Assembly (NCBI RefSeq): GCF_006345805.1
Contig: NW_021835162.1
Location: forward strand, 1-42,110
DNA length: 42,110 bases
Direction: 5' to 3'
Origin: Octopus sinensis
Lineage: Eukaryota
Shown here: piece by piece, positions 6,741 to 41,686 of the stretch
Numbering within the stretch: position 1 is the first letter of the stretch
Layout of the letters: the number at the start of each line of letters is the position of its first letter
Translations under genes and position numbers: made by a program
Notes under the pieces: generated by a model
Seen by the model: only the letters and a program-made list of their open reading frames with translations
The model's database searches: none
Told to the model about the DNA's origin: nothing

Positions 6741-8360
6741 TTAGACACGCAACTCGTCGAGGTAGGGAACTCGGTCAATACCGCCCACTGCTGACATGGC
6801 AAACACCCTCTCTCGTGTGCTCAAAAACTAAACTGACTGACTCATCCAATACTTTCTGAAATGTAGAAAATGCTACATTGTCAATTTGCCTCCAGACTTG
6901 CCCCAATTCACTGATCGGCAAACCAAGACCTACCAAAGGAAAAACCCGCTCAAATTTCCCGCCAAAAACAGTTTCCTCTCTTGCCAAACAACTCTTAAAT
7001 TGTCTCCTACACATCGGACATTAATCTCTAACTTGGCAACTGCAAATTCCTCCTCAGTGACATGTCCGTCGAGAACAGAAATAAACTCCTTATGTGCCCT
7101 CATGACCAACTGTCCATAATAACAGGAATACTAACATTATTCATATCTTCTGCCCCTCCACTCACAATATATCCCAACATCCCTGCATCCGAATACGAAA
7201 AGCTCACACCTTTGCACTACTCAGAGTTATCTACCCAAACAAACCAGGAAAGGCCGACTCGACTGACTCATCAAATATTCAAGTCTGGAAGTAGTCGAAG
7301 ACCCGACAACTCCGACTTGTCCACCGAGGATAAATCTGAACAGTCCAGCACACCAAAAGTCATCCCCCACACCCAAACTGCCAGTCACCCACCACAACTA
7401 ACCTCACACCAGGAATGGCCACAATTGCATGACCAATCGGACTGCAAGAGGGGACCCTTACCTCAGCTTCAATACTGATTATAAATATATCAACAATTAT
7501 GAAATGAACTCTTCTCCGCCTTGATTCCTTTACTTGTCCGAATATCAAGCAGTCGGGCAAACCGTTCCACGTCGTCTGAACTGACACCACACCCAATCAC
7601 CGACATATTCTCGGCTATGAAATGCTGAGACACAAATTGTTGGATCTATCCTCTACTGAGGAGATATTACGTTGGGGGATGTGAGGTTGTGGGTCATATA
7701 CGGAGAGGAGTGGACTGAATTGCCCAAATTCCGATGGAAGGCAGCCTCGTGAATCTTTTCAACACAAACAAGCCGGTCGTTGGAATTGGCGATGGAAATG
7801 TCCCTCAGAAGAGGAGTGATCATATCCGACACTTCCCACCGCTTAAAAACGGGGTGGACAGCAGCGAGGGCAAGGTAGGGGGCCATTTGATCACTATTGA
7901 CTCAACACAGTATTCATACAGCACATCCCTCGTGCAGTCCACATAGTAGTACATTGACTCACGTGAGACCACACAACTTGGAAATAACACGACTGATTAA
8001 CCCGAGTGAGGCTCCTCTTTGCTGGACTGATCGAATAAAGTTGAATCCTGTGCAATCCACTTTGCTCTACGCTCACAAATGTGTCAAACTTGGTCAATCA
8101 TGAGTCGAAGAATGTCGCAGATGCCTCGCTGAGTGGTCGACTCGTAGCGTGGGCCAGTTTGGTAGCAAATGGCGAGTCTGGCCATTGGGGATTGGTCGTC
8201 CCGTGAGGCTACTTTTATTCCATTTTTTAAAGTGAAGGACTATTTTCGGTTATTTGTTAATCACCTTCCACGGCTCTGTTTTTAGTGTTGAGGGTGATTG
8301 TTTTATGTTTGGCAAAGATGAAAGACTCCTTCTCTGTTTTGTGTTAGCAAATGACAACAT
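6741..8360 (-). CDS. UQCRC2: Cytochrome b-c1 complex core protein 2 (M16 peptidase family), 12 exons
   Basis: Removing 11 GT-AG introns (25,23,25,26,25,28,25,28,26,26,25 nt) gives an open 446-codon frame containing TLKNGIKVAS..GPRYE, PVFKRWEV, EKIHEAAF, SYSDAGMLG and the C-terminal VPYLDEL, colinear with human UQCRC2. Confidence 0.9.
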
Positions 8361-9408
8361 AAACCATATGACAAAACTAGAATTGATTTAAATAAATTTT
8401 TAACAATTATATTAATAGCAGTTCCTCAAAAATTATTATATAATATATCTCAGAATTGTTGCAGTCGAAAACCTTGTAGTTGAAATCAGTCTGCTTATAC
8501 GCAGTCGCGTGGTTGTAGGCCTTTGGCGTGCTCAGACTATTTCTTTACCCTAAATAATATCTCAACATGAATTGTGTGCTGGAATAGAGCAATTGTAGAT
8601 ATTTGAGTAAAGCAAGTAGTTATTTCTCTGTTTTATCATTCTTCAGAATTTGAAATTATTCTAACTAACCGGGCAGATGTAATGACTACGTGTTTTTAAT
8701 GACTATTTATGCTGTTTATTGTAGAGTAATGTTCTAGCAGTATTTTGTGAGTGCTGAGTTATATGCATCGGAGTTCTGTTTTTCGTGTTTTGAACAGAGA
8801 GATGTCGTATTAGTATGTCTAAAGTTGAAAAGCGTAGGCCGGACGTAATCTTGGGGCTGTAAAGCATATTTAGTAATCATAACTAATGTTAGATGTATGC
8901 CTACTCAAACACGTCCATTCCTAGTTCTTAATACTATTCAACAGACATGTAAAACAAACATAGTTGTAGTTCTAAATAGAGACTGTAGAGGAAAATATAA
9001 AATACGTGGAGGACTGAATTGAACATTTTGTTTTTTGGCCGGTCTTTGTATTAAATCTTGCCAGTTGTCCATTAATCTCTCAATAAATGTTATCAAAAAT
9101 GTTTATGTTACAATAAAAATGCGTGGGCTAGAAATCAAAAGTCGTACCCCAAAAGTCAAAAAGTGGGCCTATTGTAGTGAATCTGACAATACCTAAAAAA
9201 TAAAAAAATCAATTCTTAGAATATAATAAATAACCATTCGTGACATTGCTAATGATTTTTGTCAAAAAGTCAAAAACATAAATGTAAAAAAGAGACTTTC
9301 AAAAACAATAAATATAATTTAAAGTATCTTTACTTCTACTTAAAGGGAGCAAATTCGCAAAAGAAAGCCAAACCACATGAACCACAAAAATAATCAAAAC
9401 AGGAAAGC

Positions 9409-10216
9409 TTAAACGTCGTCTGTCGAGGAATCCTCCTCCGAGTCCTGTTCCTTTCGTCCTTGGAATATATCACTCAAAAAACACCCCAAAGATCCAAATT
9501 GTCCTTCATCAACTTAAGAATATTGGTAGCATCGTTGTTAGTGTTGTCCCAATCCTCGTCATAGTTCGCGTAGGCCTCCGCAAATGCCTCACTGGCCACC
9601 TGAATTGCCTTCTTGGGGTCATTCATGATCTCGTAGTAAAACACAGACAAGTTCAGAATCAGACCCAGTCTGACAATATTCTCAGGAGGCAAATCCTTCG
9701 ACAGAGTTTCTGCCCGGGAATATGCCTCTTTGCTGGCCTGGAGAAACTCCTCACTCGAAGGGACCACTTCAGCCACATATCGGTTATAGTCGCCTTTCCT
9801 GCAATATTACTGCACAATTCACATTTTATAGGCAAAGACTTGGACTTCCACCGAAGGAGACAGTTCTAATAGTCTATCGGCGTATTTGCAGGCCAGGTCT
9901 TTGGTCTCCATAATTTTCTCGACACAGAGAGCTCTGACCTCGGCAATAACCCTTGCCGCATTGTTGTCGGAGTACTCCTCCCTTACCACAATGACGTCCA
10001 ATGTGCGCACTGCGTTCCTGTATTGGGAAATTTTGTTTTTGCAGCAGGAGGAAAGGCAGCTTCGAACACTCTCGGAAACGTCAGTTAAAGTAGTGTCAGA
10101 AAGGAATTGTTCCAGTAATTCACAAGTATCTAAAAGTCGAGATAAACTTGCTGACCATTTGTACGGAAAACTTGGTCTGTGACAAAAATTCCCAATTCGA
10201 GATTGCTCCACATCAT
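9409..10216 (-). CDS. Divergent 14-3-3 protein, 4 exons
   Basis: Introns of 26, 24 and 26 nt give 244 codons containing KMKGDYNRYVAE, RLGLILNLSVFYYEI, ILKLMKDNLDLW and an acidic tail (RKEQDSEEDSSTDDV). Confidence 0.92.
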
Positions 10217-10607
10217 CTCTCTCCTTTTTGATATTTTATTATATTTAATATTTTTATAACAAGTTAATTTTCATGAAGTATTACTAAAAATCTATAATTT
10301 TAAATGTTAATAATAAACCCATATCTCACTAATTTATATCCCCAAAAATGCATAAAAATTAAATAACAGTTATCTTGGTTTATTATAGTGATATAAGAAA
10401 ATTGGTGTCTTTTTGTAAAGTCAAAAATAGCCCATAACGAGTCCAGTAACCAAGTATTATTACTTCACAAAACTCACAAATGAATATTCGCTTTTTCCGA
10501 CTGAGAGAAATAAGAGTTGTCTCGGAATGAAGTAAAAATCAGCATCGCAACATTCCATAAATACTAATATAATGTCTGCTCTTATTTTTAAAATAAATAT
10601 AATTATA

Positions 10608-11319
10608 ATGAACGTGGCTCCAGGTGCTGTATGCTTCCCAGGTTTCGTTTTTAAAGATTAGTCGAATAAGGGGAGGAACTGTCCTTCAAAAATACTCACC
10701 AATCCTCTGCAGGGACCTACGAATTCTTCAACTCAATCCACGCCTCCTTACACGGGACAGTCCAAGTCACCACAGAGAAAGTAAAACACAATTTAACACA
10801 AAGTCAATTTCTGTCTCCCCTTTGACTAAAAAGGCAATAATTCCTTCGGTTGATGACACTGTTCTTGTCCTAATCACCCACGTTTCTGTCAGATTCTGCA
10901 AATGTAGCATCCTCTGTGTGAACTACGAGAAAATGAACTATCCGCGAAAAGGACTTTTAAGGTAGGATGTTCTTTGTGGTAAAATTCAGAAAAGAGGACG
11001 TCCGGGCCACGGAAAAGGACAAAGTTGATTTGTATGCGTCCTTCCGCTGTGGAGACTATGTTTTGGCCAAAATAGTATTTTGAATATTTTTGATTTGTAG
11101 TTAGCAATTGGGGAGACGATGGCCTTTCTGTTGACAACGCAGGAGGATGAGTTGGGGGTTATTTATGCTGATTGTGACCCCCCGATCCCCTCGGCGATGA
11201 TTCCTATCAGTTGGATGGAGATGCAGTGTCCGGTCACTTTTGAAAAGCAGAAGAGGAAGGTGGCTATGACGAACGGACAGGTCATTGAAAAGTGGTTTTC
11301 TTCATTTGCGACTTTTTGA
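10608..11319 (+). CDS. EXOSC1: Exosome complex component CSL4, 5 exons
   Basis: Introns of 29, 23, 28 and 26 nt give 202 codons containing CFPGEEL, RKEDVRATEKDKV, FRCGD.VLAK, LLTT.EDELGV and PISW.EMQCP..RKVA. Confidence 0.93.
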
Positions 11320-12054
11320 TTTTTCATTTTCTTATCTTGTATACATGATTGGCCCAACTAAAACTGACCATCTGTCTTTCTAATTCTATCAGGTGGGCCG
11401 ATAGGATTCAAAGCATATTTAGTTTGTCGTTTGGTTGAGTAACTGCACAAATATATCGGCCATGTCCGTTTGTAGAGCTCGCAGTGTTGTCTGATCTAGT
11501 TTAGCGATTTTTTGAAAGTTGAAGGTTCATTGTTGAGTCCGATAATATCACCATTTTTCAAAATAAATGGATAAAAAAAACTTTTATTAGCAATAGGTCA
11601 CAGAGACTGTTGTTCCTGGTAGTCGTGCTATAGTTTACTAAAAAAGACAAATCAAATAGATTCAATTAAGTGATTCTGACTTTGCTGCTTGTTCGACTTT
11701 TTTGAATTTGTTTCTAAGAGGCAGAGAACATTCAGAAATAAAAGTGTCATCGAACAATCTCGACAAGCACCATAAACCTTCCATTGGGTATAGAACATTT
11801 TGTATATCCTTGTTGTCACGGGGGAAATGATGGATAGTGGCCTCTGACGTATGAACAGATATAGCAAATATGCTCACATGGTTTAGAAATATTCGTCAAT
11901 CCGTAATTATAAAGTATTCTTTGAAATTATTGATCACAAGGCAGTGATAAAAGTTAATTAAGTCTCCTGGTAACTCTGCGTGAACAAAAAGGTTTTGAAA
12001 ACAATAATTAATATTAAAGAACAAAGTTAGATGCTAGTTAGAGTAAGTGGCTGA

Positions 12055-12145
12055 AAAGGTAGTCGAGAGGCTAAGGGTCAGCTCAACAACGCCGCGCTGC
12101 CCATTGAGTGAGTTTCCGCGGAGCACGGCGACCGAGATTCGCTGG
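12055..12145 (-). mobile_element. CRE-clade LINE 3' fragment
   Basis: QRISVAVLRGN; nucleotide sequence nearly identical to 33400-33435. Confidence 0.75.
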
Positions 12146-12164
12146 GGTAAAGTTTAGGATTTTG

Positions 12165-12660
12165 AATACATCCTTCCAACCTTTAGCAAAAAGTTATTTT
12201 TTTCATCTCCAAATATAAAAATTCTTCATCAATATTCGTTGGATCCTATATTTACCTTTTTAACTATTCTATCGAGAAAAGTTCCAGATCCCCAAAGCTT
12301 GAGGAGCAAATTTCGAATCTGAACGAATACCACAATTATCTCATTTACAAGTTTGTCGCTGTACCATATTCAGTACAACATGCCGTTGCCTATTCGAGCG
12401 ACACAGACTACTTTTTTGTTCCAGATTTGTGTGAGAATAATGGAAGCAACGGGCAAATTAATATGGACGAATATTACTTTTTCTTACTAGGGGCGAAATA
12501 AAAAAATAGTTTATTCACTTTTTCAGTCTACAAACCGCGAATAACAAATGGATAATCCATGTTATCATTGGCTCCCGGAATCATCGTGGGATCAGGTGAC
12601 GAAATTAGACAATCTTCACCATTTTAACCAGGTTGTGGTGTCGTCTTTTAATATATTAGG
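12165..12660 (+). pseudogene. Isolated fragment of an axonemal dynein heavy chain (DNAH2-like) with mini-introns
   Basis: Frameshifted translation QYSLD.YIYLFNYSIEKS..KLEEQI.NLNEYH, TCRCLFERHRLLF, GKLNMDEYYFFL.G and QMDNPC..WL matches the post-AAA5 region of DNAH2. It contains an in-frame TAA and a 23-nt intron; the rest of the gene is absent. Confidence 0.75.
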
Positions 12661-12739
12661 GAGTTAACATCGAGATTGTTACCCTTGACAGGAATACTGG
12701 ACTGGCCAGCAACAAAACATGATAAAGAAAGACAATTTA

Positions 12740-13405
12740 TTACAATTTAGAATAATTAGCAGAAATGAACCCAAAATTATCATATAGTCTAGAATGGTGT
12801 GAAAAGTGAGTTTCATAGTCGCTGTTAGGAACATGACAAACAAACTGAAGATAGCGAAAAGGATACATACAACCATCATCAAAGGCTACCAATACCCCAC
12901 ACCCAACAACCTGTCAATTCAAATTCCTCAGGCACAAAATCGTCCAAATTTGTGCGATTGGTCTTTGGTCTCAGCCAGGAAAGAGTGGCACAATACTCGC
13001 TGTTTGTGGGAACACAAATGCACTTTATTTGTGCATAATAAGTGACCCCTCCATCAACCACCGACACAATATCCCCGACTATGTATGTATTGCCCTTATT
13101 ATATGTATATTTATACAACTTTGTGAGTAGTCGAGAATAGCTTGTTAACAGTGCTGGAAAGGGGATGGAATGAATTGGGCTATAAATAATAAAATCGTAA
13201 AAACGTCATGTTTGTAGTCTTTTAGTGGTGGATTATTACTAGTATATATGTTTTGGTGGCAAATGTGGCAGAGTGTGTGTCCTTGAGTTCTGTTCCAAAA
13301 TTGTGCCTCTTGGACACCACATTGGTAACATTCTTGTGTAGAATCGAATTTACTCTAAAAATGATTGTTATTCCAATTTGTACACACAGAAAAAGTACTC
13401 GACAT
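12740..13405 (-). CDS. GATAD1: GATA zinc finger domain-containing protein 1
   Basis: CYQC-x16-CHIC finger, then GNTYIVGDIVSVVD..TYYAQI..LSWL and YLQFVCHVP (human: GVYYQIGDVVSVID..YYAQI..LTWL, YLEFVCHAP). 3-4 introns of 25-33 nt; the middle junctions are ambiguous. Confidence 0.85.
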
Positions 13406-13489
13406 TATAAGAATTTATTCAAATATTTTAAATTAATGTGAATATTTTTAATTAATCAATCTTTCTTTAATAATAACAAAACTCAATCA

Positions 13490-13625
13490 CAAAGTACGCC
13501 TCATTGGAGAACACCTGCCTTTTCGTTCCTCCGGCTTTCGAGAGGAGTGGGATAATAGGCCCAAAAGGCCTGAAGTTCCTTTCGGAGATTGGCTTGATGA
13601 TCTCAAGGAAGTGTCACGAGAGACG
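13490..13625 (+). mobile_element. CRE-clade LINE fragment
   Basis: KYASLENTCLFVPPAFERSGIIGPK (cf. KYGNISDSYEFVPLAFETSGIVG at ~33500-33590). Confidence 0.6.
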
Positions 13626-13638
13626 TTAGTCTAAATGA

Positions 13639-13975
13639 CCATTCAAATAGATCTCTGTCGAATGGTTAAAACTTGGGCAAGTAAATTTTCTTGTTTTTTG
13701 GTCATCCTGAAAAGTATTCCTTCAGAATTTTTAGAATTTTGTTTATGCAGCCCAAAAAACATTGAAATAAAGAGATAAATCACGCTGTGTGTAATGTCCA
13801 TTTTTGTAATTCAATTATTTCCTTCATTTGAAAAAATGACGCGTTTTCGTTTTTTAACCCTGCTAACAACTGTAGAGCGTGTATTTTATTGATTTTAAAG
13901 AATTTTCATATACGATGTAAAAATATTAAATTTAATATTTTTATGTTCACAAAAAGTTAATGTTCACTATTCCTC
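13639..13975 (-). mobile_element. pogo/Tigger-like 5' fragment, second copy of the family at 33844-36985
   Basis: 13639-13830 aligns directly with 36777-36980 (accattcaaatagatctctgtcgaatgg...gctgtgtgtaatgtc) and shares the tgttcactat motif. Confidence 0.75.
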
Positions 13976-14142
13976 AAAAGCAAAATGGAACTTACCAAAA
14001 GCAAACTGGTACAAAAATAATTTCTGTTTTTTTTAACAAAGTGACATTCAAAAGTGCAGTGATCAATTGGAAAAGTGACTAAGCAAAAACCTATATATTT
14101 TGATGTTTGGGTAAATATTTCATTTTTCATTTGTATGCTTGC

Positions 14143-14490
14143 AATAATAATAAATAAATCAATACAGCCGTTCCGCGAGATCGCAACTTAATGTGAAATC
14201 TCGCACTGGCCAGCCACATAAGATCAAGATAGAAAGAGAAAACATGTTATTAGGAACTAACTAATCCAAACGAACGAATCCAAACGAGCTGTCCCCCCGC
14301 ATCTATTTTTCTCTCGTGCTGTGGCTGATGTAGACATCCGGTTCCGCAGTGAAATCACTGATGACGGCGTCACTCGTCAATCCAGGGTGCATGTAGTATG
14401 CATGGAACCTTCGGCCGGAATGATAGCAGTGAGATTCGAACCCAGAGCTTCGCGAAACTGCCAAATTCTTCAAGCACTGCACCACCCGGC
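14143..14490 (-). mobile_element. tRNA-derived SINE-like element (~350 bp)
   Basis: Minus-strand head GCCGGGTGGTGCAGTG (A box) ... GGGTTCGAATCTC (B box), GC-rich body, (ATT)n tail, flanked on both sides by gcttgca (possible TSD). Confidence 0.7.
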
Positions 14491-14619
14491 TTGCACGAAT
14501 GCTTGCACGAATAAAAAATTCTGAGGCTGCAATTAAGAAAAATATTATTATCGGGGCCCATGAAAGATATGGTGAATGAAGGAAACTTGGTCTCTTGGAT
14601 TGTTACATTATGAATTGAA

Positions 14620-14860
14620 ACGTGGATCCTTTAATAAAGAATCTGCTCATTAATGGTTGAGAATTTGTCTACGGAAACCCAGGCAAGCTTAAAATTTCTT
14701 AGTAGTGGTAGTAGACAATGCTTTATGCTATTCAGGAATGAAAGAAATTATCACAGAAAAGGAATTCATAGAAAATAAAATTTTAAGATTGGTTCCTAAT
14801 GCTCAACACAATTGAGAATATTTAGTCAGTATTCAAAACTGACATAAAAAGACACATCGC
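14620..14860 (+). mobile_element. Tc1/IS630-like DDE transposase fragment
   Basis: VVVDNA..S and ILRL.P..MLNTIENI (cf. DNAPCH..LP.YSP.LNPIE); degenerate. Confidence 0.55.
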
Positions 14861-15549: not shown

Positions 15550-16442
15550 ATGGGAAAGACAGATGCTAAATATGCTGCTATAAAGAAAAAGAAAACGTAG
15601 TTTTAATCAACAATATAAATAGTATTGACCCCTTTTTGAGGAAGGAATGGTACAACGTGAGTGCTCCTCCCTATTTTGAGAACACAAAAATCGGAAAAAC
15701 TGTCGTAACAAAAACCACTGGAGAAAGTACCCGAGTCTTTGAAATTATTAGAACTCGCATCTGACAACTTGAAAGGGCGTTCATACAAAGTGTCTTTGGC
15801 AGATCTGGATAAAAGCGAGAATTTGTGCTACAAAATATTCCGTTTTGTGTGCGATTCCGTCGAAGGGAAGAACTGCTACACCTCCTTTGCCGGAATGGAC
15901 ACAACCCAAGACAAAAAACAAAGCATTGTCAAAAAATGGCACGTTGGCTTTATTTTGTGGACCTCCATTTAGACTTTGGTGGATGCCCACGCCTCCGCGA
16001 GCACAACCGACGGATATAAACTGCATTGCTTTATGGTGGGTTCTACGGGGAGGAACAAGAACCAGATCAAAAAGACCAGTTATTGTCAGAGGAGGCAAGT
16101 GAAGCGAATAAGGAAGGTGATGGTGGACACGATGACCAGAGGAATTGCGTCCTCCGACTTGGCTTCGTTTATCAAAATAATGTAATCATTCGGTTTTGAT
16201 TTTTAGTAAAGCAGAGGCGATGGCTAAGGATGTGATTAAACGGACAGAGAGGATCTATCCTTTGGGCAAGTTCTGTTGACTAAAGTCAAGGTTTTAAAGC
16301 GACCTAAATATGACAGTTTTTGTTTTGGTGAGTTGTAGAGTCTCAACTTGAACAACTGTATTCGACTGGTGCTGATGTTCAGCCTACGGTTGTGGATAGG
16401 CCTGTTGAGCACGTAGAACCTCCGATTCTTGATAAGGTTTAA
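15550..16442 (+). CDS. RPS3A: 40S ribosomal protein eS1 (S3a), 6 exons; one apparent 1-nt deletion at ~16264
   Basis: IDPFLRKEWY, LKGR..VSLADL, T.F.GMD.T.DK..S.VKKWHTLVDAH, IYPL..KVKVLKRPK and EPP. Introns at 15597-15622, 15727-15751, 15943-15972, 16182-16206 and 16316-16338. Spliced length 764 nt, one base short of a full frame. Confidence 0.95.
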
Positions 16443-18430: not shown

Positions 18431-18591
18431 AAAACCACTCATTGGGACTTCTTACAACCAATACTCAATATGGAAAGAAATACTCAAATCTATCCTCCAT
18501 TAGCCTTAAATTTTCATAACACATTTTTTTACTAGTTAAAATTAAGTACATATGAATAAAATAAACCCCCAAAACATAAATACATATAAAG

Positions 18592-19685
18592 TCAAACATC
18601 CTGATCGTCGAGTGACTCCCTACTACTGGGACCAGAAGTTCTCCTGTACTCAAGCAGATCAGTCTCGTCAACAAAAATAATATTTTCATACTCCCGAGGC
18701 ACTCTTATCGCACTAGGAGGATCTGCATTGGCCTCGTTCAGACTGACCACCGACCGAGACCTGACATACTGAAACTCCACATGCCGAGTACTGCTGTCGT
18801 TTCTCTCCCACGAAACGTGAATAAACGGTCTTTGCACATAATTATAAAACACTGCCACGATATGACAACGTTCTTACCCTCTGTCCGCCTGCTGGGGTAT
18901 GTCCTCACCCGATCACGTGTTGTGGGGTGGTCTTCGTGAACTATTTTGACTTTCTTAAAACCCCGCATTTCAAGGACTTGTTTGGCCATTATTCGGTTAT
19001 CTGCATATTTGAAAAATTTAGACATTTCTGTGTCGTGGATCACTTTTTGTTAATATAAAAGGATAAACCTTCCACTGGGTGATTAAATGGCCTCTCTCCT
19101 TCATCCAACTCGACATAATCCGAGTCCCGCATAATGGCTATATGACTCTCTCTTTCTCCCCTTAATTTTACTACCTCAATTTGAACCTTGCAGAGCAGTC
19201 TAGTAGTACTTTTAGTAATTGTGTATTCAAAAAGGCATCAAACCGTCCACGAGCCCCAATATTCGAAAATTCATGCAAAAGATCGCCTAAAAATCTATTT
19301 TATCTGCCAAACCCAAATTGTCACATCTAATCGTGGAACTATCAAATGGAATCATCAGGTAATCACACGCCTCTTTAATGTCCAAGAGAGAAAGAGCAGT
19401 TGGGCAGTAAATTGTGTCGTGGAAGTAAAAACCCTATGATTTAGTGGTCCTGTCTACCAGAGTGATTTCAAATATATCCGCAGGAATTCCAAAGCTAGCT
19501 CATACTCGCCATTCTCGTTTTTTACAATGTTATTTAGTTCTTGCTCATTGTTGAACATTCTAAGGTTTCTTTAGGAGTAGTTACCTTCCAAGCATAGAAT
19601 TGGGGTGACGTGTGAGGGCTGTGAGAGGGACGTCAAAACGACGGTGGTCGATTAGAAGTTTTACTACTTCTGAATTCGCAGACAT
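18592..19685 (-). CDS. BTBD10: BTB/POZ domain protein of the BTBD10/KCTD20 family, at least 7 exons; one apparent 1-nt deletion at ~19492
   Basis: PNSMLGRMF, NENGEYE, KEACDYL.I.F, LLHEFSN.GAR, GERE.HI, FFKY.DNR..AKQVL..RG.KK and FYNYVQRPFI..SWE...RHVEFQ.VRS. Six GT-AG introns of 24-26 nt. Confidence 0.9.
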
Positions 19686-20386: not shown

Positions 20387-20433
20387 GTTGAATTTAGCGT
20401 GGTTGAAATATTTTATATAAAAAATAAGTTAAG

Positions 20434-21243: not shown

Positions 21244-22705
21244 CACTAAGTGCAAAAAAAACCGTTTTTTTAAATACGGCATATTTTGCAAAGATAACCG
21301 TGATTTTTCTTTGTCGATATCGAAAGGGATCGTTAAATTAACCCTAAATCAATTTTGTTATATTTTTTTTGTATTGTGTTATATGTCTAAATTAAAAATT
21401 TTAATTACACGAGCGCAATAAAAAACCGTTTATTCGGGTGAGTGTGACATTTTTTACTTTTTTTAGAATTTTAACCCTCGATAAAATTACGAATGCTTGA
21501 TGTAATAACAAAAGGAAAGATTCTAAGCTTGAATGCGTTAAATTGGACCACTAAAAAAATATCTGAAGAGCTTAATATCCCGCGATCAACTATCGCTGAC
21601 TTCATCCAAAAATTCATTAAATATGGTACGACTGAAAGAATGAAAGGTTCGGGGAGACCAAAAATTCTTAATAAGGACGATATCCTTATTTTACTCAACC
21701 TGATTAAAGAGGACCCCCAAAAAAAAGCTGATTGCTTAAGGAATGATCTCCGTAAAATAACCGGAAGAACAGTCGGTAAAAGATCCATCGCAAATTATTT
21801 AAGAAGGGAGCAAATATATGCTCGTGTATGTAGAAAAAAACCATTATTGAACAAAATAAATAGTGAAAAACGCTATAACATGGCAAAGCATTTCATTACT
21901 GTGGCAAACACTGAATGGATGAGGACAATTTTCAGTGACGAATGCAGTTTCGAAGTTTTTAATATTAAAAAACGGCAATATTGTTATCGGAAAAACAATA
22001 CAGACCTTCAAAAAAGCAACCTTTCGCCTACTGTAAAATTTGGTGGGGGGAAAGTTATGGTCTGGGGCTGTTTTTCCTATTACGGAATGGGCTCGCTTGC
22101 TTTTATACACGGGAATATGAATTCCGCACTTTATATCAACACACTATGTAACCATTTATGGGAATCTGCAAAAAATGGAGCTTAGTGACTTTATTTTCCA
22201 ACAAGACATGGCACCATGTCATACTTCCAAGATGACTATGCGATTTTTCAAGAAAAGAAAGTAAACCTTTTACCATGGGCACCTCAATCACCGGATTTAA
22301 ATCCGATCGAACATATATGGGCTCATATGAAGAGGGAATTAAACACCTTTCATCCAAAGAATGTTTCGGAATTGAAAGAAAAAATCGAAAATATTTGGAA
22401 TGAAATACCGATTAGTTTTATAAAAAAATTAATCGAAAGCATGCCGAATAGAGCACAAAAGCTTTTTAAGGCAAAAGGGGACCATATTGAATACTAACTT
22501 TAAATAATCAAAAATAAAACGGTTTTTTATTGCGCTTGATTTTTTGTTAGTTATAATTTGTTAAGTAAAAATGATTACAAGTTCAAATATAAAAATAAAA
22601 CTAGTGTTAAAAAATGATAAATTATTCAATTCTTTAATAAAAACAATATAGTTGCATAGTAAATTTTTGATATTTCGAAAAAAACGGTTTTTTTTGCACC
22701 TAGTG
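21244..22705 (+). mobile_element. Full-length Tc1 (DD34E) transposon with IR/DR-type ends
   Basis: TA|cactaagtgcaaaaaaaaccgttttttt ... aaaaaaacggttttttttgcacctagtg|TA. Inner repeats gcgcaataaaaaaccgttt (~21413) and aaacggttttttattgcgc (~22517). Confidence 0.92.
21493..22497 (+). CDS. Tc1 transposase, broken only by two 1-nt deletions in homopolymers
   Basis: Paired-like HTH, GSGRPK, FSDEC, VMVWGC and FQQDMAPCH...SPDLNPIE, with 34 residues between the second D and E after restoring bases at ~22172 and ~22246. Confidence 0.85.
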
Positions 22706-24772: not shown

Positions 24773-25649
24773 CTAGAAAGCAAAGTCCTCATTGAGCCAA
24801 TTGGGATCCTCCATTGCGGAAGGAACCTAGAAATAAAAAACTGAAATCCAAACAAAGTTCATATCATACTGACGAGCATCCTGATTATAGACCATATCCG
24901 ACTCCTGTTCGTCCACATTTTCAACCTCCTCTACACGGTCTGTCTCCTCGACTTCTCTGTACAGAACATATCCACCATAACATCCCACGGACTTTGTCTA
25001 CTCAGAACTCCCTTAATTCTGAGGAACTCTCTGGACAACAAATACCACATCACCCCAATAGACTCCCTCCCCTACACACTCACTATGAACTACAACCTTG
25101 TTATTGCAGGGAATAACACAATCCACGTTATTGGGGTAGTTGTCACTGTCACAGAAAGCAATCACAATTATCCCCCGCATGGAGGCTTCCTTAATACACT
25201 GATGGTCCACTTGGGGATTGGCTACCACCAACACCAGGGGTTCCATGAATTGTTTCTACCAATAAGAAACATTCCCAGCCTGTCCCCGATTGGTGAACGA
25301 GCCGGGAGTGAATCTCTGGACGACAGAGGCAGATCCCGTGTAGCGGGCAAACTTGAGAGCTGCTCGCTGGGCCAGAATGTTCCCCCCCACAGCGACGATA
25401 TCTTTCGGGTTTTTGATGGCAACCATCAATCGAGCGGCGATTTGGATTTTCTCCCACATGAGGTGAATGTTTATTATGTTTGTCCCTTTTGATTATTAAA
25501 GTGAGTCCCCGAGTACCATCTGTGTTGGTGCTGTAAATATACCTTTCCATTTGTTTGTTAATGCTTGGAGAGGCGATGTGAGCCTTTGAAACAAGTATGA
25601 GTCTTACATCCTCGGGGGTTATTTTCATAAGATTACATCCACCAGACAT
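24773..25649 (-). CDS. RPSA: 40S ribosomal protein uS2 (SA), 5 coding exons; one apparent 1-nt deletion at ~24965
   Basis: [58 protein letters not shown] and PWDVMVD. Introns of 31, 24 (GC-AG, 25279-25256), 25 and 27 nt. Confidence 0.95.
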
Positions 25650-25678
25650 TCTTATCTAGCTACAAAATGCGTGCAAAT

Positions 25679-27746
25679 CAGGGTTGTTAAAAATCATGAT
25701 TTTTTTCAAAAAAATCAAAAAAATCTGATTTTCTTGATTTAATCACGATTTTTTTTGATTAAATCAGATTTTTTTGAATAAATGATCTTTATTTCAAAAC
25801 GACCCTTTCCACCTGGCTTATCAGAGAACCTCTCTCTTTGTACATAAACACTGAAACGGCCACGCAGAACGATCTATCGTAGTTCCTTATGTCCACCGGG
25901 ATCACTTAACTAGTTTGCATTACGCTTTCTTTCTTTGTGGTCTTCGGGTTAATAAATAAAAAAATATTTCAAAGCGAACTAAAATAAAAAACAAAAACAA
26001 TGGAAATCGTTTTTATTTATTTAAAAGCTTGTAAATGGAAACAAGTTTGGCTGCTTTTTCGATCCCCAGCCTATTGCGTACATTTGAATGTAGAAATCCG
26101 AATGTTGAAAAGATTCTTTCTATTCCACCTGTCGAAGCAACTGCTCAAGAATTTTTTTGCATAGTGAAATTACTTGTGAAGGTAACTGGTATGAATTCGA
26201 CTCCCGCCAAGCTATAGGTGATACTTTACTCAATAAATTCGGAGCAAACATGTATTGTTTAAATGGATCAGCTTTTGCTCTGAAATTAATCAGAGTCGGA
26301 AGTGCATATTCATAATTTTGAGCACAATAACTCAATGCAATGTCAATCTCAACATTTGAAAGAGATTCCCACTACATGTCGGGTCGATCAAATTCGCAAG
26401 TAAGTGGAAAGGTGTTAATGCTTGTTTTGCTCGAATTCTCACTTTTCCTAAAATATTCGTACATCCATTGTCAATATATGTCTGTTCAAGTTCTTTCCAA
26501 ATTTCTACAGCATGACTAATCGTGGTAGAATCATTCTGAATTTTATCTAAAGCGACAGCAATTGGTTTAATAAGCATCAGATATTCTTCAACGCGTCGTT
26601 TTAGGGAAATATTTGGACCTTGGAAAAAATCTCTGTATCAATATCCGTTCTGTGTTCCTCACAAGTTCTCAAAATAATAGACCAATTATCCAGATAAGAT
26701 TGAAAACAGTCTGATAAAGTGTTCCACCGTACATCAATCGGAAGAACGAGTTTTTTTCCTCCATTAGATTTGTACCATGCAGCTGGAAGATGGACGTTTC
26801 GGAAATATTTATTGATTGTTACATAGTTCCTTTAACGTCCGCTACCTCGACATCCTTCAAAGAAGTTGAGATAATGTGCCGAGCAACCATAAGTAATTAT
26901 TTCATTGCCATCTTCCATCATTATCCGTCTCATTTTAGTCATGTTGGCAGCATTATCCGTTACAAGACTGCCGATTGTACATCCAAACCGTTGTTCAGCC
27001 AATTGTGCGGAGGCTAAAGCAACAGATTGAAGATATTCCGCAGTGTGGCTATATCCAGAAGTGTCCACAGTGTCAATGAGATAATTTTCCCCATCTGATG
27101 TCACAACCGAGACACAAATAACGGGTTCATTATGAATGTTGCTCCCCCGTCCAACATCATAGACACTGTTTTGTCCTGGAGTCTTTGTCGACAGTCTTCA
27201 TGTATTTGGTCGTACACATGATCAAGTAATGTACCACCATTTGATGACGAGAGGGTAAACGATACCCAGGAAGAAGCATTTGGACGAATTTGACAAATTC
27301 GGGATGTTCTACACAGCAGCAAACGGAGTGTTTGTAGAAAATATGTATCTAGCGAGTTGCAGATCCATCAAATCTTTCTTAGATGAAGTCGTCGTAGTTA
27401 CGAAATTGATTAATGAATGGTCCTTCATCCTTGGAGGAAATTCGCTTTCAGGTCTCGGCATAATTTTCAGGGATATCAATATTACTTCGACTATTACTAC
27501 ATAATAAATGATGCTGCCTCATCCGAGATACAGACCTTGTATGTCCTTCCCACAATTACGACATCTGGCACGGCTTCCGGTCTTTCCAGGAATAATACGT
27601 TTATCAAAATAAGCCCACAAAGAATCACGCTTTCTTCCAGACATTTAAAAAATTTAAATGATTTTTTTGATTTTTTGATTTTTTTTAATGATTTAAATCA
27701 TTGATTTTTATTGATTAAAATCAAATGATTTAAATCTAACACCCTG
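25679..27746 (-). mobile_element. Full-length hAT transposon with 8-bp TSD, 30 bp upstream of the RPSA ATG
   Basis: TSD gtgcaaat at 25671-25678 and 27747-27754; ends cagggttgtta... and ...taacaccctg; GATTT/AAATC-rich subterminal repeats. Transposase from ATG 27644 has a BED finger (WAYF..CRNC..H), LDG(W)SN, VTDNAANM, CSAH, RWNT and STGGIERIFS, broken by single-base indels. Confidence 0.92.
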
Positions 27747-28214: not shown

Positions 28215-29281
28215 TTAAAAATTAAGATCTGAGTAGAAATTTATATTGGGATAGTTCTGGAATGTCTGATCGGGAGTTTGAAAATGCATTGAGGGGAGGA
28301 ACAGCATTGATTTATTGGCTCTTATTGGCTCTCTCAACATACTTTCTGGGTAATATTCGTTTCCATAATGTCCATAATGTTGATAATCTGTCACAAATGA
28401 CGAAAACAAACTATTTTTAAGTCTGTTATTCTGCAGGATTTGTGGTCTTGATTAAACTGATGTTGGTAGACCCCAAATTCTGTGTTACTGGGAGGTGGAT
28501 TGAGAGGTAGGAGGCTAGAGTTGCTCGGTTGTTTCTTTTCCGTTCCTTGGACCTCCTGTTTTGAAACCAGACCTAACACTAAAGACCCTCATTCTGACTT
28601 GGATGACGCGAACTGATAGTCCAGTCATTTGCTCATTTCTTCCAATGTATGACGCAATGGCTTTCTTTCACTTTCGTACAATTCTGTAAGCAGCCCAATT
28701 TGATGTGGTTTGATTGATGTTCTCCGTCCTCGCTGTTTGCATCTGGCTTCATGCTTGGCCTGAACTTCCTGACTAAGGGATTCAGGCTCTTCAGGACTCC
28801 CTTCACTTCCGAACAAGAATCAGGGGACTTTGAGATGCCTTCTGATTCCGCAGTGTTTTTTACTAAAATAACTCGATTATCAAACATATATTTTTGTGAT
28901 AATAGTCCATGCAGTAAAGTGTGGATTTATTACAATAGTGAAATGAGTCCCCAGTTTTGAGTTCTTTGTTACAACACAGACACTTGAGGCATTCAATATG
29001 ATACATATGTGAGTTGATGTTATACACCAATGTATTTAGTTCAATTTGGACGTTACACAACGGACAAAACCCATACATCCTACAAACTAAAATTTTAATA
29101 AAACATTGCATAGTCGTTAAAACAGTAAATCCCATTTCTCACGTAACAACATATGTGAGTACCTGAGAACACACACAACCTGGAGACAGTTAGTGTGAAA
29201 ATATGAGTCCATCAGACGCAAATATGAGTGTTTTGTATAAATTACTTCTTGACATTTGGTACATTTCAGCTGACCATCCAT
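28215..29281 (-). CDS. LIM-homeobox protein, Lhx1/5 (Lim1/lin-11) family; several apparent 1-nt deletions
   Basis: LIM1 CTKC..HTNC, LIM2 CPLC..HIECLKCLCC..LYC.D, homeodomain RGRRTSIK..Q..TGLSVRVIQ|VWFQNRRSKER with a 26-nt intron at the canonical IQ|VW position. Confidence 0.85.
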
Positions 29282-33909: not shown

Positions 33910-35881
33910 CAGGGGTCACCAAACTTTTTGCACTCGCGGGCCGGATTGACCCCAACACAATGAACGCGGGCCGGAGCACGTGCATAGGATTATAATTTTA
34001 CTAGAAATTCATAAGTGTGTTTTTTACAATAAAAACTAATTTAAACAAAAATAAAGTAAACAAAAATTTTAATGAGAGCTATGGAACTGTGATCTTTTTT
34101 TGATAAGTTCATCAATATTTGGTTTTAAATTGCTGCATCCTATCATGAGAATTGATTTTAAGTGTCCGTCAGTCAATCTTGCACGATGGGCAGACTTAAC
34201 ATATTTCATCCTCGAAAACGTTTGCTCACATTGGTAAGTTGTGCCAAATATAGAAATCATCTTTATCGCAAAATTCTTTAGTCTCGGAAACTCATCATCC
34301 TTGAGATATTCGTAGAACTCAGCGAGTTTGGTCCGTCTGTGACAATCTTTGAGCTGTTCATTTGATTGTAAGTCAATAACTTTTAATTGTAATTCATGTT
34401 GAACATTTTCAACATTACAAGAAAATGGATTTTCGAACAAAATTATATCGCTTTCAATTTTGTCAAGTTCAGAAAACTTATGTAAAAAATGATGTTTTAA
34501 TTCTTTGATAATTCCAATTTGGAAAGTAATGTCGATCTCATAACAGTTTGCCTCACAAAAACTTTTAAAACAAGAAAAGTGTGAAAACTGACGTACTCCA
34601 AGTTGTGACTCGAATAACATCAATTTTTGTCGAAATGCTTTAATTATCCTGTAGAAATCACAAATTAAGTTTTCCTTTCCTTGTAATTTCAGATTTAGCT
34701 CATTCATGTGAGTTGTAACATCAACCAAAAATGATAATTTTGATAGCCAAGCAAGATCTGATAATTCGGGATAATAGTTATTTTTACTGGTTAGAAAAAT
34801 ATCAATCTCACTTCGGAGTTTATAAAATCTATTTAATACATTACCACAGCTAAGCCATCTAACTGCAGTGTAATATGGTAAGTCAAAATATTCAGATCCA
34901 AAATCGTCAAGTAAAACTTTAAACTGACGGTGATTAAGTGAGCTCCCTCGAACAAAGTTTATTATGCGAATAACTGGATTCAACACACATGAAATATTAA
35001 GAGCCTTCGCACATAGTGCGTGCTGATGAAGGATGCAATGAATGAACAAAGTGTTTGAAATATGTAATTCCTCCAATTTATTAGTTATTTGCCCAACTAG
35101 ACCCTTTTTAGAACCAGCCATATTCTTTGCCCCGTCAATCGTAACACAACTCAGTTTCTCCCATTCAAGGTTATAGTCACTTATAGTTTGTTCCAATTCA
35201 TCAAAAATATCTTTTCCAGTGGTTGTTCCATGAATAGAACAAACAGATGCCAGTTCTTCAGTTATGGAAATATTCTCATCAACTCCACGAATAAAAATAA
35301 GAAGTTGCGATGTTCCCGAAATGTCAACTGACTCATCCAATGCAAGAGAATACCACAACATATTACTTGTCTTTTCACAAATTTGTAAATATATATTTTT
35401 TCCAAGCTCTTCAGTTCTCCGTGATACAGAACTCGCCGACAAACTTATTCCATCAAATAAGGAAGAATTTAGTGGGCACAAACAATTAACTGCTTCAATA
35501 ATGCAATTTTTGATATACATCCCATCACTAAAGGGTTTCCGTGTTGTGAAATAATTTTCGTTATCTCGTATCCAGCTCTTGTTACATTTTCATTATTTTC
35601 AAAATTTTTTTTTATAAGGCCTTGTTGAATTTGTAAAGTGCGTTTCAGTGATTCAACTTTATCCTCACGTAGCTTTCCAGTGTACTTGGAATATATCGGA
35701 GCATGATTCGTTTCATAATGACGTCGAATGTTATACTCCTTCATAACAGAGAGATGTTCGTGGCATATTAAACAATAATTATTAAGGTATTAATTGAATA
35801 TATTAAGGTATTAATTGAATATCTCGAAATAGTGCGCGGGCCGGATAAAATGTTGTCGCGGCCGTAGTTTGGTGACGTCTG
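33910..35881 (-). mobile_element. hAT (Charlie/SPIN-like) transposon nested in the pogo element
   Basis: TSD gtctatag at 33902-33909 and 35882-35889; TIRs caggggtcaccaaact / agtttggtgacgtctg; cgcgggccgg subterminal motifs. Confidence 0.93.
34069..35775 (-). CDS. hAT transposase (GTF2IRD2-like), one frameshift at ~35535, N-terminus apparently deleted
   Basis: CLIC..KEYNIRRHYETNH, LALDES, TIDGA, HCILH, VRWLS and CEQTFS; 483-aa uninterrupted ORF. Confidence 0.85.
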
Positions 35882-37619
35882 GTCTATAGTGAACAAAAGG
35901 AATCAAAATAACATTAAACAATATTAAAGTATAATTACAAAGATTATTTAGAGATTTTAATCATGTAATCGGTGATTTTTTGAGAATGATTAGTTTGATA
36001 ATTTCTTAAAATTTTTGTATTTCGTATACTTTTCCTCTTTGTTCATAATCATTCTCAAGAAACCATAATTCAAGTGCCTTCGCATATTCACTAGCTTCAT
36101 ATAGTGTCGGAACATAAATTTTTTCATCTTCTTCTTCAACTTGGTCTTGTTGTTTTAGTTTTCTCGCAAAGTTTTGTATAAAGTTTTCGTCGTCAATTTG
36201 ATCATTTGCATGAATCAAAAAATTTTCATCATCTATTTCTTCTATTTCTGTCAGGTTCTGTATTAACGCATTTTCAAATGCTTTCTTGAAACAATTTGTA
36301 ATTGTTAATTCCGACACTTCTAACCAAGCTTGTTTTATGAATATCAAGCAATTCAATAGAGTGAATTTCTTCAACTTTTCCGTAACTTTTTCGTGATCTA
36401 CATTGTCATCATTAGTATAAAATTCAATCAAGTGTGCACATAGGAGTTGTCTATACCTGTCTTTGAATGATTTATTATTCCTTGATCAAGGGGTTGTAAC
36501 TTCGATGTTGTATTTGGAGGGAAAAAAAAGAGTTCGATGTTACTGTTCTAATTTTCTATTAAGGCTTTCTGTAAAATTTTCAATCACAGAGGTTTCAAAA
36601 AATTGATTTTCCCCACATAAAGCACGGGAAGCAATGCAATATCGATTTTTAAATTTCTCAAGCCATCCATTTGATGCTTGAAATCCTTGAATATTACAAA
36701 CTTTCGCCATTTTTAGAGACATGGACTTCAAAAGATATTCATTGATTGTAAATCCAAATGATCGTTTTTTAACGAACCATTCAAATAGATCTCTGTCGAA
36801 TGGTTGTGACTTGGGCAAGTAAATTTTCTCCTTTATTGGTCATCTTGAACATTAAGAATTCCTTCAGAATTTTTCAAAATTTTGTTTATGCAGCCCAGAG
36901 AAACATTGAAATAAAGGGATAAATCGCGCTGTGTGTAATGTCTATTTTTATGATAAAATTCGATTATTTCCTTCACTGAAATGGAGCATATAGCTATATC
37001 TCTACACGAATATTCACACGGAGGAGTAAACAAATCAGAAAAGTCATTCGAAATTGTGAAGTATGTAAATTTGCCTGTCAATTGAAAGTTTTAATTCTTT
37101 TTAATTTTTAATGTAGATTGGTGATATGAATCATCATATCTTTGCTTTTTCTCGGAATGAAAGATTTCAACAACTTAAGATCACTTTTCTACCTATATGG
37201 ACATTGCAAAATTTTGCAATCAGATTCAAGAATGTATCTCTGAGAGATCTATGCGAAGGGTTCAATCTAGTTCAGATACATGGAAGACCAAACAATCCCC
37301 GTACACAGGGGATGGATAAATTCGAGTCTCCATTCTATCAGGAGGCTGAAATAATTAACATTTTATCAAATAATCGAGTCGAGGCAAATCAATCATTTTT
37401 ATTTAATAGATAAAATATGCTAAAGGAGAGATATGGAGGGTACCAATGGCAAGACTAAAAAATGATTAATTTTAATATTTTTTGTTAAAATGCATTATTC
37501 TTTCAAGTTATTCGATGATTAAAAATTGACATCTACAAGGTCAAAAATGTATGAAATATGAGTCTCCAAAAGTTCAGTTTGAATGTGTTGATTAATTTCG
37601 AAATCATTAATTCTTAATT

Positions 37620-37770
37620 CATTTATTTTTAGACATCTATGGCACTTAGCATTATCAAGAAGAATCAAATTTTTTTTGATTTTGTGAAGACATTTCATCA
37701 TTATTTGTTGTAACCAATTGTTAAAAATATTAATAGTCATCCACGTATTTTAGAACGCATCGAATATAAC
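37620..37770 (-). mobile_element. pogo-type DDE_1 fragment
   Basis: WMTINIFNNWL..LILLDNAKCH. Confidence 0.6.
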
Positions 37771-39103: not shown

Positions 39104-39302
39104 GTTTAAACAACCTGGAAATATGAAAACAAGTATCGGCGGTATATTTTCTTTTTACAGATGATTTTTCAATTTCAATTTTTAATTTTTATATTACTTA
39201 AATGATATCAAAATATAAATTTTTTTGATTTTTTATTTTTTTATTATTTTGTTTGAATAATGAAATAAACTGTTAAACGTTTTTGCTTCTTGTCGGTTCG
39301 AA

Positions 39303-41686
39303 ATGTTTAAAATTAGTCAATCTATTAATGCACATTCTGACGACGTAAGATGCATATTTATTGACTCTGCAACATCCTTTCTAACATGTTCAAGAGATAA
39401 ATATGCCAAAAAATACATTCTTAACTAGTATTTACAAACCTGTCAAATTCCCAGCCAATCTGGGCTATTTGAGGAACAGTACAGAACATTTGACCACCCA
39501 AAGTATGTTTCCTCAGTCTCCCATTTCCCCCCAAATACTCAATTCCCCAACGGCCTTGTTATAACAGCTTGTTACGATTCAAAAATAAGAGCATTTGATC
39601 TTACAAATCCAGAACCAATATTTACACTGAACAGTCATCGAGGAGAAGGCTCTAATCTAATATATATTTGATAGTATCATGCCTACATGTTCACAACTCA
39701 GTCTTGATAAGTGGATCGTTGGACTCTTCTGCCGTAGTTTGGTTTGATTTTAAAGAGAAATATCGACTGGAAGGCAATTTTGGTTTCTTAAGTCTTTAGG
39801 ACATTCACTTCCGGTGTGGGATGTGGCCATTTACAGGGATGAGTTATACCTGACTGCCTCTGCTGACAGGACTATCAAATTATGGGAGGGTTGTTCGTTA
39901 CGGGCTACTTTCTGGGGGCATTCTGATTGTGTGCGTGGGTTGTCGGTGGATGACGAATTGGACACCTTCTTTTCATGTTCGAACGACGGAACAGTCAAAT
40001 GCTGGACATATGAGTCAAATCAGAGTTTGGAGACTTACTATGGCCATACCAACTATGTGTATGGAGTACAGGGCAGAGGAGGGGATTCATTGGTGTCCTG
40101 TGGGGAAGACAGGTCTGTAAGGGTGTGGAAATGTGGGGAATGTGTGTCCACAGTTGTACTTCCCGTCCAATCTGTGTGGTCTGTTTCTTTTTTTCCAAAT
40201 GGAGACATTCTGACTGGCTCATCGTAGTTATCCTGGTCCATTTTAGTGATGGGATTGTCCGTATTTTTACCCAAGATCAAAGTCGGTATGCTAGTCCCAG
40301 AGATCAAGAGGCATTCTCCGCCGCAGTGGCTTCGATGAACATTCCAGCACAGATCGGGGACCTCTCCACTGAGGCTATTCGAGGAGAGGATTCACTGAGT
40401 GAGAGAGGTGGGTGTGCCCTTAGGAAATATTGCAGGGTCGAAGGAGGGGGAGATTCGAATGGTGAGAGAGGAGAGTGGAGATGTCCTCGCCTACAGTTGG
40501 TCGACCGTGGAGGAACGTTGGCTGAAGATAGGACGAGTAGTGGGGGCGAATGACAGTTCTAAGCAACTACATGAAGGCCGGGTGGTTTCCGTGTGTATCA
40601 GACACAGGAATATGATTATGTCTTTGATGTGGAGTTGGAGGAACTGCTTCCTGGACTCAGACTCAAATTGCCGTATAACATTGGTGAGTCTTATGAGGAG
40701 GCTGCCGACAGATTTGTGTCTGAAAATGACCTTCCTCAATTTTATAAAGAACAGATTGTCGACTTTCTTAAGGCGAATACTTCCAAAACTAATTCGAGTT
40801 TGACTTGGTTGTGTATTTTAGACAAATCAGCTGCGTGTACTGTATATTCTAATCTTCAGTTGGAGGCCATGTCGAGTTGTGTTGTGGGGATTATTTTGGC
40901 AGATAAGATCAAGGAGTTGTCTGATTTGGTCCCCTCTGAGTGGAGGATCAGTGATTTGGAGTGGAATGTTATTCGGGAGGTCGACAAATCGGTGGACTCA
41001 ATGCTTCCTGTGCTCAAAAAACTGATAAACTGGCCTGCAGGTGTTATATGTGGTGATGTGTGTTAGAATATATATTCCCTGTGGTGGATATGATGAGGTA
41101 TATCATGGCTGTGTTCCCCCAGGACATGTTTTTTGTGCTCAAAACTATTTTCCCCGACGAAGGCGAGTTGAGTGGTGTGCTTAGAGAGTGGTTTATTCAG
41201 GCAAGTAAAAGCAGATCTCCAATTCTCAAGTTTATTGCCAATGGACTGGCCTGTGTGAGGAGCAGGGAATATTTTGTGTGTTTGTTGGGTAAATTGAAAA
41301 GTTTGCTGTTTGAATTTGTGGGGTGGCCTGTGGGGGGACAGTCGTTCCCGGTCAATCTCGTATCCCCGTTTCTGACCGTGCTAGTCAATGCGGTCATTTC
41401 TGTCAGGTCACTGGGTGGAAGGGAGGACACTCGGGATGACCTTTCGACTCTTATGATATCCTTTCTTCGAGTTTATATCACTTTCCCTGAGAGGAAGGAT
41501 GAGAACGTGGTGACTGGGCTCAATGTTTTGGGGACTTTGCTTAGTGGGGACTCACGCTTGTCTGCTTTGGTGTTGAGTTCTCTCAACTTTGATGAGCTTT
41601 TGGGGGATATTATTGAATTAAATGTCGGTGGTGGGGCTGTAGCTGCTGCCAAGGAAGTTCGTTCGATTATTCAGAACTCCCTTTAG
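39303..41686 (+). CDS. PLAA: Phospholipase A2-activating protein / Doa1 (WD40-PFU-PUL), 10 exons
   Basis: Introns 39428-39454, 39649-39674 (GC), 39774-39799 (GC), 40224-40246, 40408-40435, 40582-40607, 40798-40821, 40876-40902 and 41041-41066 give an open 717-codon frame containing HSDDVR, SADRTIKLW, GHSDCVRGL, SCSNDG, GEDRSVRVW, EYDYVFDV..LKLPYN and WP.EYIFP..D. Confidence 0.93.

Follow-up and report, generated by a model that had tools for sequence, protein, structure and literature searches.

A strand-composition flip about 390 bases after the start codon as a probable footprint of germline transcription in a probable dicyemid

The window analysed here is the whole stretch of 42,110 nucleotides (nt) of contig NW_021835162.1 (assembly GCF_006345805.1, positions 1 to 42,110 of the forward strand), deposited as Octopus sinensis. 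Nine of its genes were measured, namely eight housekeeping genes and a LIM-homeobox-like gene (Table 1). In all eight housekeeping genes the sense strand turns from a C/A-rich 5' part into a G/T-rich remainder, at silent positions and in introns, and in a wider sample of sister contigs this flip is centred about 390 bases after the start codon. The names EXOSC1, GATAD1, BTBD10 and LIM-homeobox (the last from the translation) are presumptive, and so is UQCRC2, which was also the name given in an earlier note on this DNA made from the sequence alone. No Pfam match was obtained for the UQCRC2-like and EXOSC1-like genes in the exons tested. No RNA evidence was listed for positions 6601-16500, which counts neither for nor against the genes there.

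Table 1. Genes and transposon-derived features of the window, with the G+T fraction of silent third positions and intron cores (first 300 nt, then at least 450 nt), its permutation P value and the single change-point
Feature	Position	Strand	Domain or remark	G+T	P	Change-point (nt)
UQCRC2-like gene	6741..8360	-	C/A zone ~8360-7990, then G/T-rich as far as 6741; no stop inside the exon model	0.28 to 0.61		+366
14-3-3 gene	9409..10213	-	PF00244; unnamed in the earlier note	0.41 to 0.64	0.0006	+433
EXOSC1-like gene	10608..11319	+	Switch near 10950	0.39 to 0.75		+345
GATAD1-like gene	12740..13405	-	Switch near 13120	0.43 to 0.73		+283
RPS3A gene	15550..16442	+	PF01015; switch near 16010; model tested to 16269	0.46 to 0.64	0.006	
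BTBD10-like gene	18592..19685	-	Weaker, later switch	0.40 to 0.56	0.007	+815
Transposase remnant	21258..22705					
RPSA gene	24773..25649	-	PF00318; switch near 25240	0.42 to 0.68		+411
hAT-like element	25679..27746		DUF659			
LIM-homeobox-like gene	28426..29281	-	Internal control without flip	0.56 to 0.48	0.53	
Transposase remnant	34069..35589					
Transposase remnant	36006..36839					
PLAA gene	39303..41686	+	WD40 and PFU; C/A zone ~39303-39700, G/T-rich body	0.40 to 0.64	0.0002	+1126

Within the window, composition was measured on hand-checked exon models, at synonymous third positions and in intron cores, with permutation within each site class. The G+T fraction rises between the first 300 nt and the sites at 450 nt or beyond in all eight housekeeping genes (P from 0.0002 to 0.007 for each gene), and intron cores taken alone rise in all eight as well, in agreement with the earlier note, which had seen introns follow the pattern. 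The eight strings that it quoted are all present at the genes and on the strands it gave, and the switch of BTBD10 is weaker, as it had said, and also later. Single change-points lie between +283 and +464 in six of the eight genes and later in the BTBD10-like and PLAA genes. The raw GC skew over all sites of the first 300 nt is negative in only six of the eight, being +0.04 in the 14-3-3 gene and +0.11 in RPS3A. The GATAD1-like model required a 1-nt frame adjustment for site classing; both haplotypes change reading frame at the 13205/13179 junction and no indel separates them, a non-canonical splice site being one possibility. The ninth gene has no overall flip, and its intron cores nevertheless rise in G+T (0.57 to 0.69). 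The amplitude of this LIM-homeobox-like gene is -0.33, and two copies elsewhere (one at L175:2604-3415) give -0.9 and -1.2, as if the lean of the gene and its copies were opposite, reversed and not merely unskewed.

The wider sample comprises 1.59 Mb on 10 contigs, which were chosen through a shared repeat and are hence non-random. Genes were called with a purpose-written finder whose two-zone version has a separate 5' model and was trained with the window left out; it placed the start within about 20 nt of the hand-read ATG in 8/8 window genes. A skew-neutral gene model was dropped because it had less power and missed 5' ends. Removal of eight transposon-like or split models from 166 de-duplicated ones left 158, among which 114 lie outside the window and have short introns only. 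Among the non-window genes longer than 600 nt, 102 of 107 shift toward G/T, 72 of them at P < 0.05, and none is significantly reversed. The shift was found in 54 of 58 genes on the plus strand and 48 of 49 on the minus strand, and follows the strand of the gene.

The metagene plot which the earlier note proposed as a check gives a consistent sign change at fourfold-degenerate and intronic sites of the 114 genes. Indeed, the fourfold-site GC skew runs from -0.29 to -0.40 at +50 to +200 and becomes positive after about +500 to +700, the intron GC skew is -0.3 to -0.5 early and then +0.13 to +0.20 at +600 to +2000, and the AT skew moves in the same direction. The fitted midpoint lies 387 nt from the ATG (bootstrap 325-408), inside the 250 to 450 nt that had been judged by eye, and the transition is gradual, with a tanh scale of about 140 nt. 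Upstream of the ATG the G+T excess is near zero and the GC skew +0.02 to +0.13; beyond the stop codon the G+T excess runs for about 150 to 300 nt and then fades. The flanks carry little evidential weight, since even the two haplotypes differ by insertions in their intergenic DNA. The GC content of the 114 genes drops to about 0.20 at -80 to -30 from the ATG, which suggests AT-rich promoters and very short 5' untranslated regions (UTRs). Skew follows distance more than intron order, in a small number of cases, and a possible resetting of skew by AT-rich long introns gave similar small drops in 12 versus 8 cases, many of these genes being probably mis-joined. Furthermore, N-terminal amino-acid use is shifted along with the skew (K, N and I up; V, F and M down).

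A finder that models the 5' end separately could impose such a pattern, and the one-zone version, free of this feature, did clip some 5' ends. That version nevertheless gave the same direction of sign change in 64 clean genes, the window genes stood outside training and were hand-checked, and introns and fourfold sites show the pattern, as do genes whose starts are anchored by Pfam matches (22 genes, of which 20 were testable and 20 shift). It is thus hardly credible that gene prediction or amino-acid composition created the pattern artificially.

The animal concerned is likely not the octopus itself. The window, a complete contig (C11633) of a 2.7-Gb assembly, is gene-dense with tiny introns, and among the 1807 introns predicted by our own gene models the median is 25 nt, 94% are shorter than 30 nt and 60 have GC donors. 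The introns of Dicyema sp. have a reported median length of 27 nt (PMC6543705); in D. japonicum the GC content is 36.7% and introns average 38 nt (PMC6736024), and a 2026 survey attributes such short animal introns to myxozoans and dicyemids only (PMC13644364). A 14-3-3 exon is 99% identical to an octopus-labelled database protein and 48% to the next match, and an innexin on a sister contig is 100% identical to an octopus-labelled protein and 46% to the next; no named dicyemid sequence was among the matches listed in the protein searches. From these sequence features, the DNA is likely that of a dicyemid, a parasite of the octopus kidney, co-assembled with its host. The public 14-3-3 model (P0001; window 9474-19025) is a chimera of the true 3' exon, BTBD10 and intergenic stretches, which indicates that host-trained annotation misreads contigs of this set.

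The amplitudes of individual genes are heterogeneous (Q=364 on 113 degrees of freedom) and several of the low genes looked ciliary, which led us to split the genes into classes (9 ciliary and 41 housekeeping, partly from Pfam matches). TTC30, AK7, the name CFAP299 and the ciliary role of a kinesin and of TTL are presumptive. Housekeeping genes flip at about +390 and are G/T-rich thereafter, most so at the 3' end, while the body of ciliary genes remains C/A-leaning and their 3' UTRs carry no G/T excess. The claim that most genes flip thus stands for housekeeping genes and fails for ciliary ones. In mid-gene introns the GC skew is +0.19 in housekeeping and -0.09 in ciliary genes, and a length-matched mid-gene contrast between 8 ciliary and 17 housekeeping genes gives P=1.8e-6 (introns alone, P=5e-5). 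Mid-gene values in housekeeping genes are -0.28 for the intron AT skew, and +0.09 (GC) and -0.06 (AT) at fourfold sites. From 5' to 3', their fourfold GC skew goes from -0.38 to +0.13 and their AT skew from +0.15 to -0.31 at fourfold sites and from +0.08 to -0.42 in introns. Across genes, introns and silent sites vary together (rho 0.62, n=58). On the other hand, the 5' zone and the body show no correlation (rho -0.15, P=0.25), which suggests a partly separate cause for each.

The ciliated cells of dicyemids are somatic, the axoblasts lie inside the axial cell and the sperm is non-flagellate (PMC10636606). Such an anatomy makes ciliary genes likely silent in the germline. For a held-out test, dyneins, tektins and a radial-spoke gene were retrieved by family search in 20 stretches, with 15 dynein loci of which one duplicate was dropped. 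The GC-independent silent-site index was -0.21 to 0.00 in 14/14 dynein loci and +0.04 to +0.94 in 17/17 housekeeping genes (P=2.6e-6), the dynein values being taken on homology-defined codons and so not like-for-like with those of the housekeeping models. Cytoplasmic dynein-1 is the highest of the 14 loci, the other 13 being ciliary; dynein-2, the second locus sharing its P-loop, has an index of -0.16. On its gene model, the intron index of dynein-1 is 0.27 and falls within the 0.23 to 0.94 spanned by housekeeping genes, and ten ciliary gene models have intron indices of -0.13 to +0.25 and silent-site indices of -0.03 to -0.29. The silent-site GC content of the dynein heavy chains (L184-L197) spans widely, from 0.23 to 0.62, a spread that could stem from isochore-like domains or from a mixture of parasite species.

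The earlier note had proposed two branches of explanation, one of which is a fixed germline replication origin. Under it, an origin about 400 nt into each active gene would leave a G/T-rich leading strand. The polarity agrees with the bacterial and human CpG-island pattern (PMC2817419), long housekeeping genes switch rather abruptly, the absence of the switch from germline-silent genes would likewise be expected, and the 3' zone is weak in nine close convergent pairs. However, when origins were set at +450 of every non-ciliary gene and fork polarity was computed, the neighbour-dependent fork-polarity term was +0.04 (95% interval -0.11 to +0.16) instead of the +0.38 needed, and a step in gene coordinates surpassed pure fork models by 86 to 106 units of the Akaike information criterion. 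Body sites predicted to be C/A-rich have a fourfold G+T of 0.54, as against 0.37 in the 5' zone and 0.57, slightly higher, at other body sites (6 housekeeping genes, 14 of all non-ciliary genes, with our own annotation of neighbours). Ciliary genes, with origins placed at +400, are indifferent to predicted fork direction (-0.076 at positive and -0.089 at negative polarity), and the skew extremes lie at +100 to +200 and at the 3' end instead of beside the switch. We hold this branch to be very improbable.

A related possibility places bidirectional breaks or origins at AT-rich gene edges, with resection or fork polarity keeping one strand single-stranded on either side and so producing mirror zones at both gene ends. 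A pooled fit did favour two end zones comparable in length (about 350 nt) around a neutral middle; an AT-rich patch lies at -80 to -30, and fast intergenic turnover could hide the outward half. This mirror model was demoted by the class split, since housekeeping middles are G/T-rich and ciliary ones C/A-leaning, so that the pooled neutral middle comes partly from mixed gene classes. Moreover, three neighbour terms were -0.15, -0.21 and -0.47, where additive sources predict +0.5 to +0.8 (a fourth, +0.18, is uninformative), and unique upstream flanks have a G+T excess of merely -0.02 to +0.08. We consider it improbable.

Base frequencies in introns give the direction of the changes. In the order A, C, G, T they are.238,.139,.204 and.419 in housekeeping bodies,.294,.188,.157 and.361 in ciliary genes,.303,.191,.157 and.349 in held-out ciliary genes, and.375,.233,.079 and.312 in the 5' introns of housekeeping genes. 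Against the ciliary baseline, whose mild C/A lean may stem from codon and splice-signal preferences, housekeeping bodies are down in A and C and up in G and T by near-equal pairs, and the housekeeping 5' introns display mirror pairs (A +.08, C +.04, G -.08, T -.04). Such a pattern is expected if A>G and C>T changes fall on the non-template strand within the body but on the opposite, template strand close to the start. In ciliary 5' introns only the G-to-A half is seen (190 sites). Methylation of CpG was rejected as a cause, CpG being at 0.83 and 0.82 of expected in the two zones, and avoidance of G runs or G-quadruplexes was likewise rejected, as neither GG (1.05 of what base composition predicts) nor GGG (1.15) is depleted.

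Selection on the nascent RNA might instead keep the 5' C/A zone, by disfavouring G/U-rich sequence that promotes R-loops, structure or early termination, and leave only the body excess to mutation. The 5' zone is also seen in ciliary genes, which would be expected if it mattered in every expressed gene, and G loss is the largest component of this zone. The counts of GG and GGG just given speak against it, as does a loss of G that is similar across all four next-base contexts; furthermore, copies have diverged no less in the 5' zone (95/1801 sites) than in the body (486/5562, a count dominated by one distant paralogue). Selection of this kind appears unlikely to us, though more credible than the other alternatives.

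Two separable layers make up the pattern. The first is a zone poor in G and rich in C and A that covers roughly the initial 400 nt of housekeeping and ciliary genes alike; the second, confined to housekeeping genes, is a G/T excess of the body, strongest at the 3' end and continuing past the stop. From this composition we infer that the flip at silent and intronic sites is, with fair probability, the footprint of strand-biased, germline transcription-linked mutation or repair in a probable dicyemid. This is the other branch of the earlier note, and it gains from the fact that the G/T part tracks probable germline expression, that introns and silent sites move together and that the excess runs beyond the coding region. 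The second layer would be of mammalian type, with A>G and C>T in excess on the non-template strand because this strand is exposed or the template repaired. The first could reflect the same transitions hitting the template strand while the polymerase initiates or pauses, or while antisense transcription runs close to the promoter; its cause is the weakest step of the explanation. A more specific version, which we put forward tentatively as a possibility, is that in the dicyemid germline C>T and A>G strike the template over the first 400 or so transcribed bases and the non-template strand thereafter, the boundary being that between early and productive elongation.

Several points weigh against an explanation by germline transcription. 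Ciliary genes have a 5' zone (-0.107) almost equal in strength to that of housekeeping genes (-0.156; P=0.09 overall, 0.7 for introns and 0.002 for silent sites taken alone), so that this zone does not depend simply on germline expression. Differences between duplicates or alleles are too few and too poorly polarised to be informative, with 26 changes toward G/T versus 28 toward C/A in the 5' zone and 169 versus 148 in the body. The silent-site index of dynein-1 is only -0.01, below every housekeeping gene compared, and the dynein comparison has the unequal basis mentioned above. The first ciliary and housekeeping sets were picked after the per-gene values had been seen, with some identities presumptive. 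The gene models are self-made and biased toward typical genes, and low-scoring models have a positive amplitude in only 44 of 66 cases. Finally, the dicyemid source and the germline silence of ciliary genes are two likely premises, drawn from sequence features and from anatomy.

The surroundings of the genes deserve a description of their own. The window largely matches contig C8318 at 96 to 99.6%, with large structural differences and genes that are 97 to 100% identical, and the distance from BTBD10 to RPSA is about 5 kb in the window as opposed to about 73 kb, with other genes, on C8318 (L161-L172). The window resembles an alternative haplotype, or a rearranged copy, of part of that contig. 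The hAT-like element, located about 30 nt upstream of the RPSA start codon, is not in C8318. Copies of RPSA (24756-25677; 95%, starting some 140 nt upstream and ending 17 nt beyond the stop) and of BTBD10 (18266-19756; 96%) are dispersed, roughly gene-sized and have kept their introns (contig stretches L173, L174, L176 and L009). The first exons of UQCRC2 with upstream DNA (8166-8990) have copies at 73 to 81% on three other contigs, and contig C8702 carries several further near-identical gene duplicates. Much of the intergenic DNA is taken up by transposase remnants that are Tc1/mariner-like, hAT-like and DDE_1 (pogo-like), identified by Pfam matches with outer limits read by eye. As regards repair genes, a UVSSA domain match was obtained only on a chromosome-scale contig, the lack of one on parasite contigs having no weight as evidence, an XPA-like gene with short introns was read by eye on a compact contig, and XPB and p44-like domains are present.

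In unicellular fungi the GC skews of the two gene ends are opposite: C prevails 5' and G prevails 3' on the coding strand, a contrast that is seen at fourfold sites, continues into the 3' UTR and has been proposed to reflect phase-specific transcription mutagenesis (McLean & Tirosh 2011, PMC3315797). The present pattern shares with them the C bias 5' and the G bias 3' on the coding strand, fourfold sites included. However, the fungal AT skew is flat whereas here it shifts too, and the fungal C bias peaks in the promoter whereas the zone described here begins near the ATG and peaks at +100 to +200, a comparison which is weak since flanks turn over fast and transcription start sites (TSSs) are unmapped. 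Unlike the fungal case, this one concerns an animal, with a presumably germline-silent gene class that lacks the G/T part. In mammals, a non-template excess of A>G and C>T gives G>C and T>A, a bias that continues past the 3' end (Polak et al. 2010, PMC2927911; Xia et al., 10.1101/282129), and it is absent from genes unexpressed in the germline (same sources). Here too, G exceeds C and T exceeds A in the gene body at near-neutral sites, the bias follows the gene strand beyond the 3' end, and it is absent from genes presumed silent in the germline, for which ciliary genes are the only proxy. Mammalian genes keep one sign from the TSS and reverse upstream, but here the reversal occurs within the first 400 transcribed bases, and the intron GC skew, below 0.06 in most of the mammalian transcript, reaches 0.2 to 0.45 in housekeeping genes.

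A C>G skew at TSSs is described in plants and fungi by Fujimori et al. 2005 (PMC555766), and none of the 10 animals in that study had a significant C excess. The C excess near the gene start seen here is of similar or larger size, but its place is downstream of the ATG and a G/T body comes after it. In Drosophila, intron skew is toward C, at about 1% overall and 4% in highly expressed genes (Bergman et al. 2017, PMC5786239). In both cases an invertebrate intron skew tracks germline expression (probable expression here), but no within-gene switch is described for Drosophila in the part of that study considered, and the skew described here is about 10 times larger or more. By analogy, the body appears to behave like the mammalian bias and the start like the fungal skew, one defining feature of each failing. 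No earlier description of dicyemid skew was found, the word skew being absent from the main text of PMC6736024 and PMC6543705, though supplements and subscription papers could hold one. What the present analysis adds is the ciliary-gene control.

Whether 5' skews come from mutation or from selection is an open question, and their sign differs between mammals on one side and fungi and plants on the other. Both signs are present here inside one short animal gene, at the size given above relative to fly introns, and ciliary genes offer a built-in germline-silent control, as cilia genes in an animal with cilia-free germ cells. If the template-then-non-template scheme is true, the strand swap would be pronounced enough to show in one animal gene taken by itself, and skew alone could call the genes active in axoblasts and the place where early elongation ends. 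Furthermore, the skew misleads one-zone gene finders and could bias phylogenies of the long-branch dicyemid phylum.

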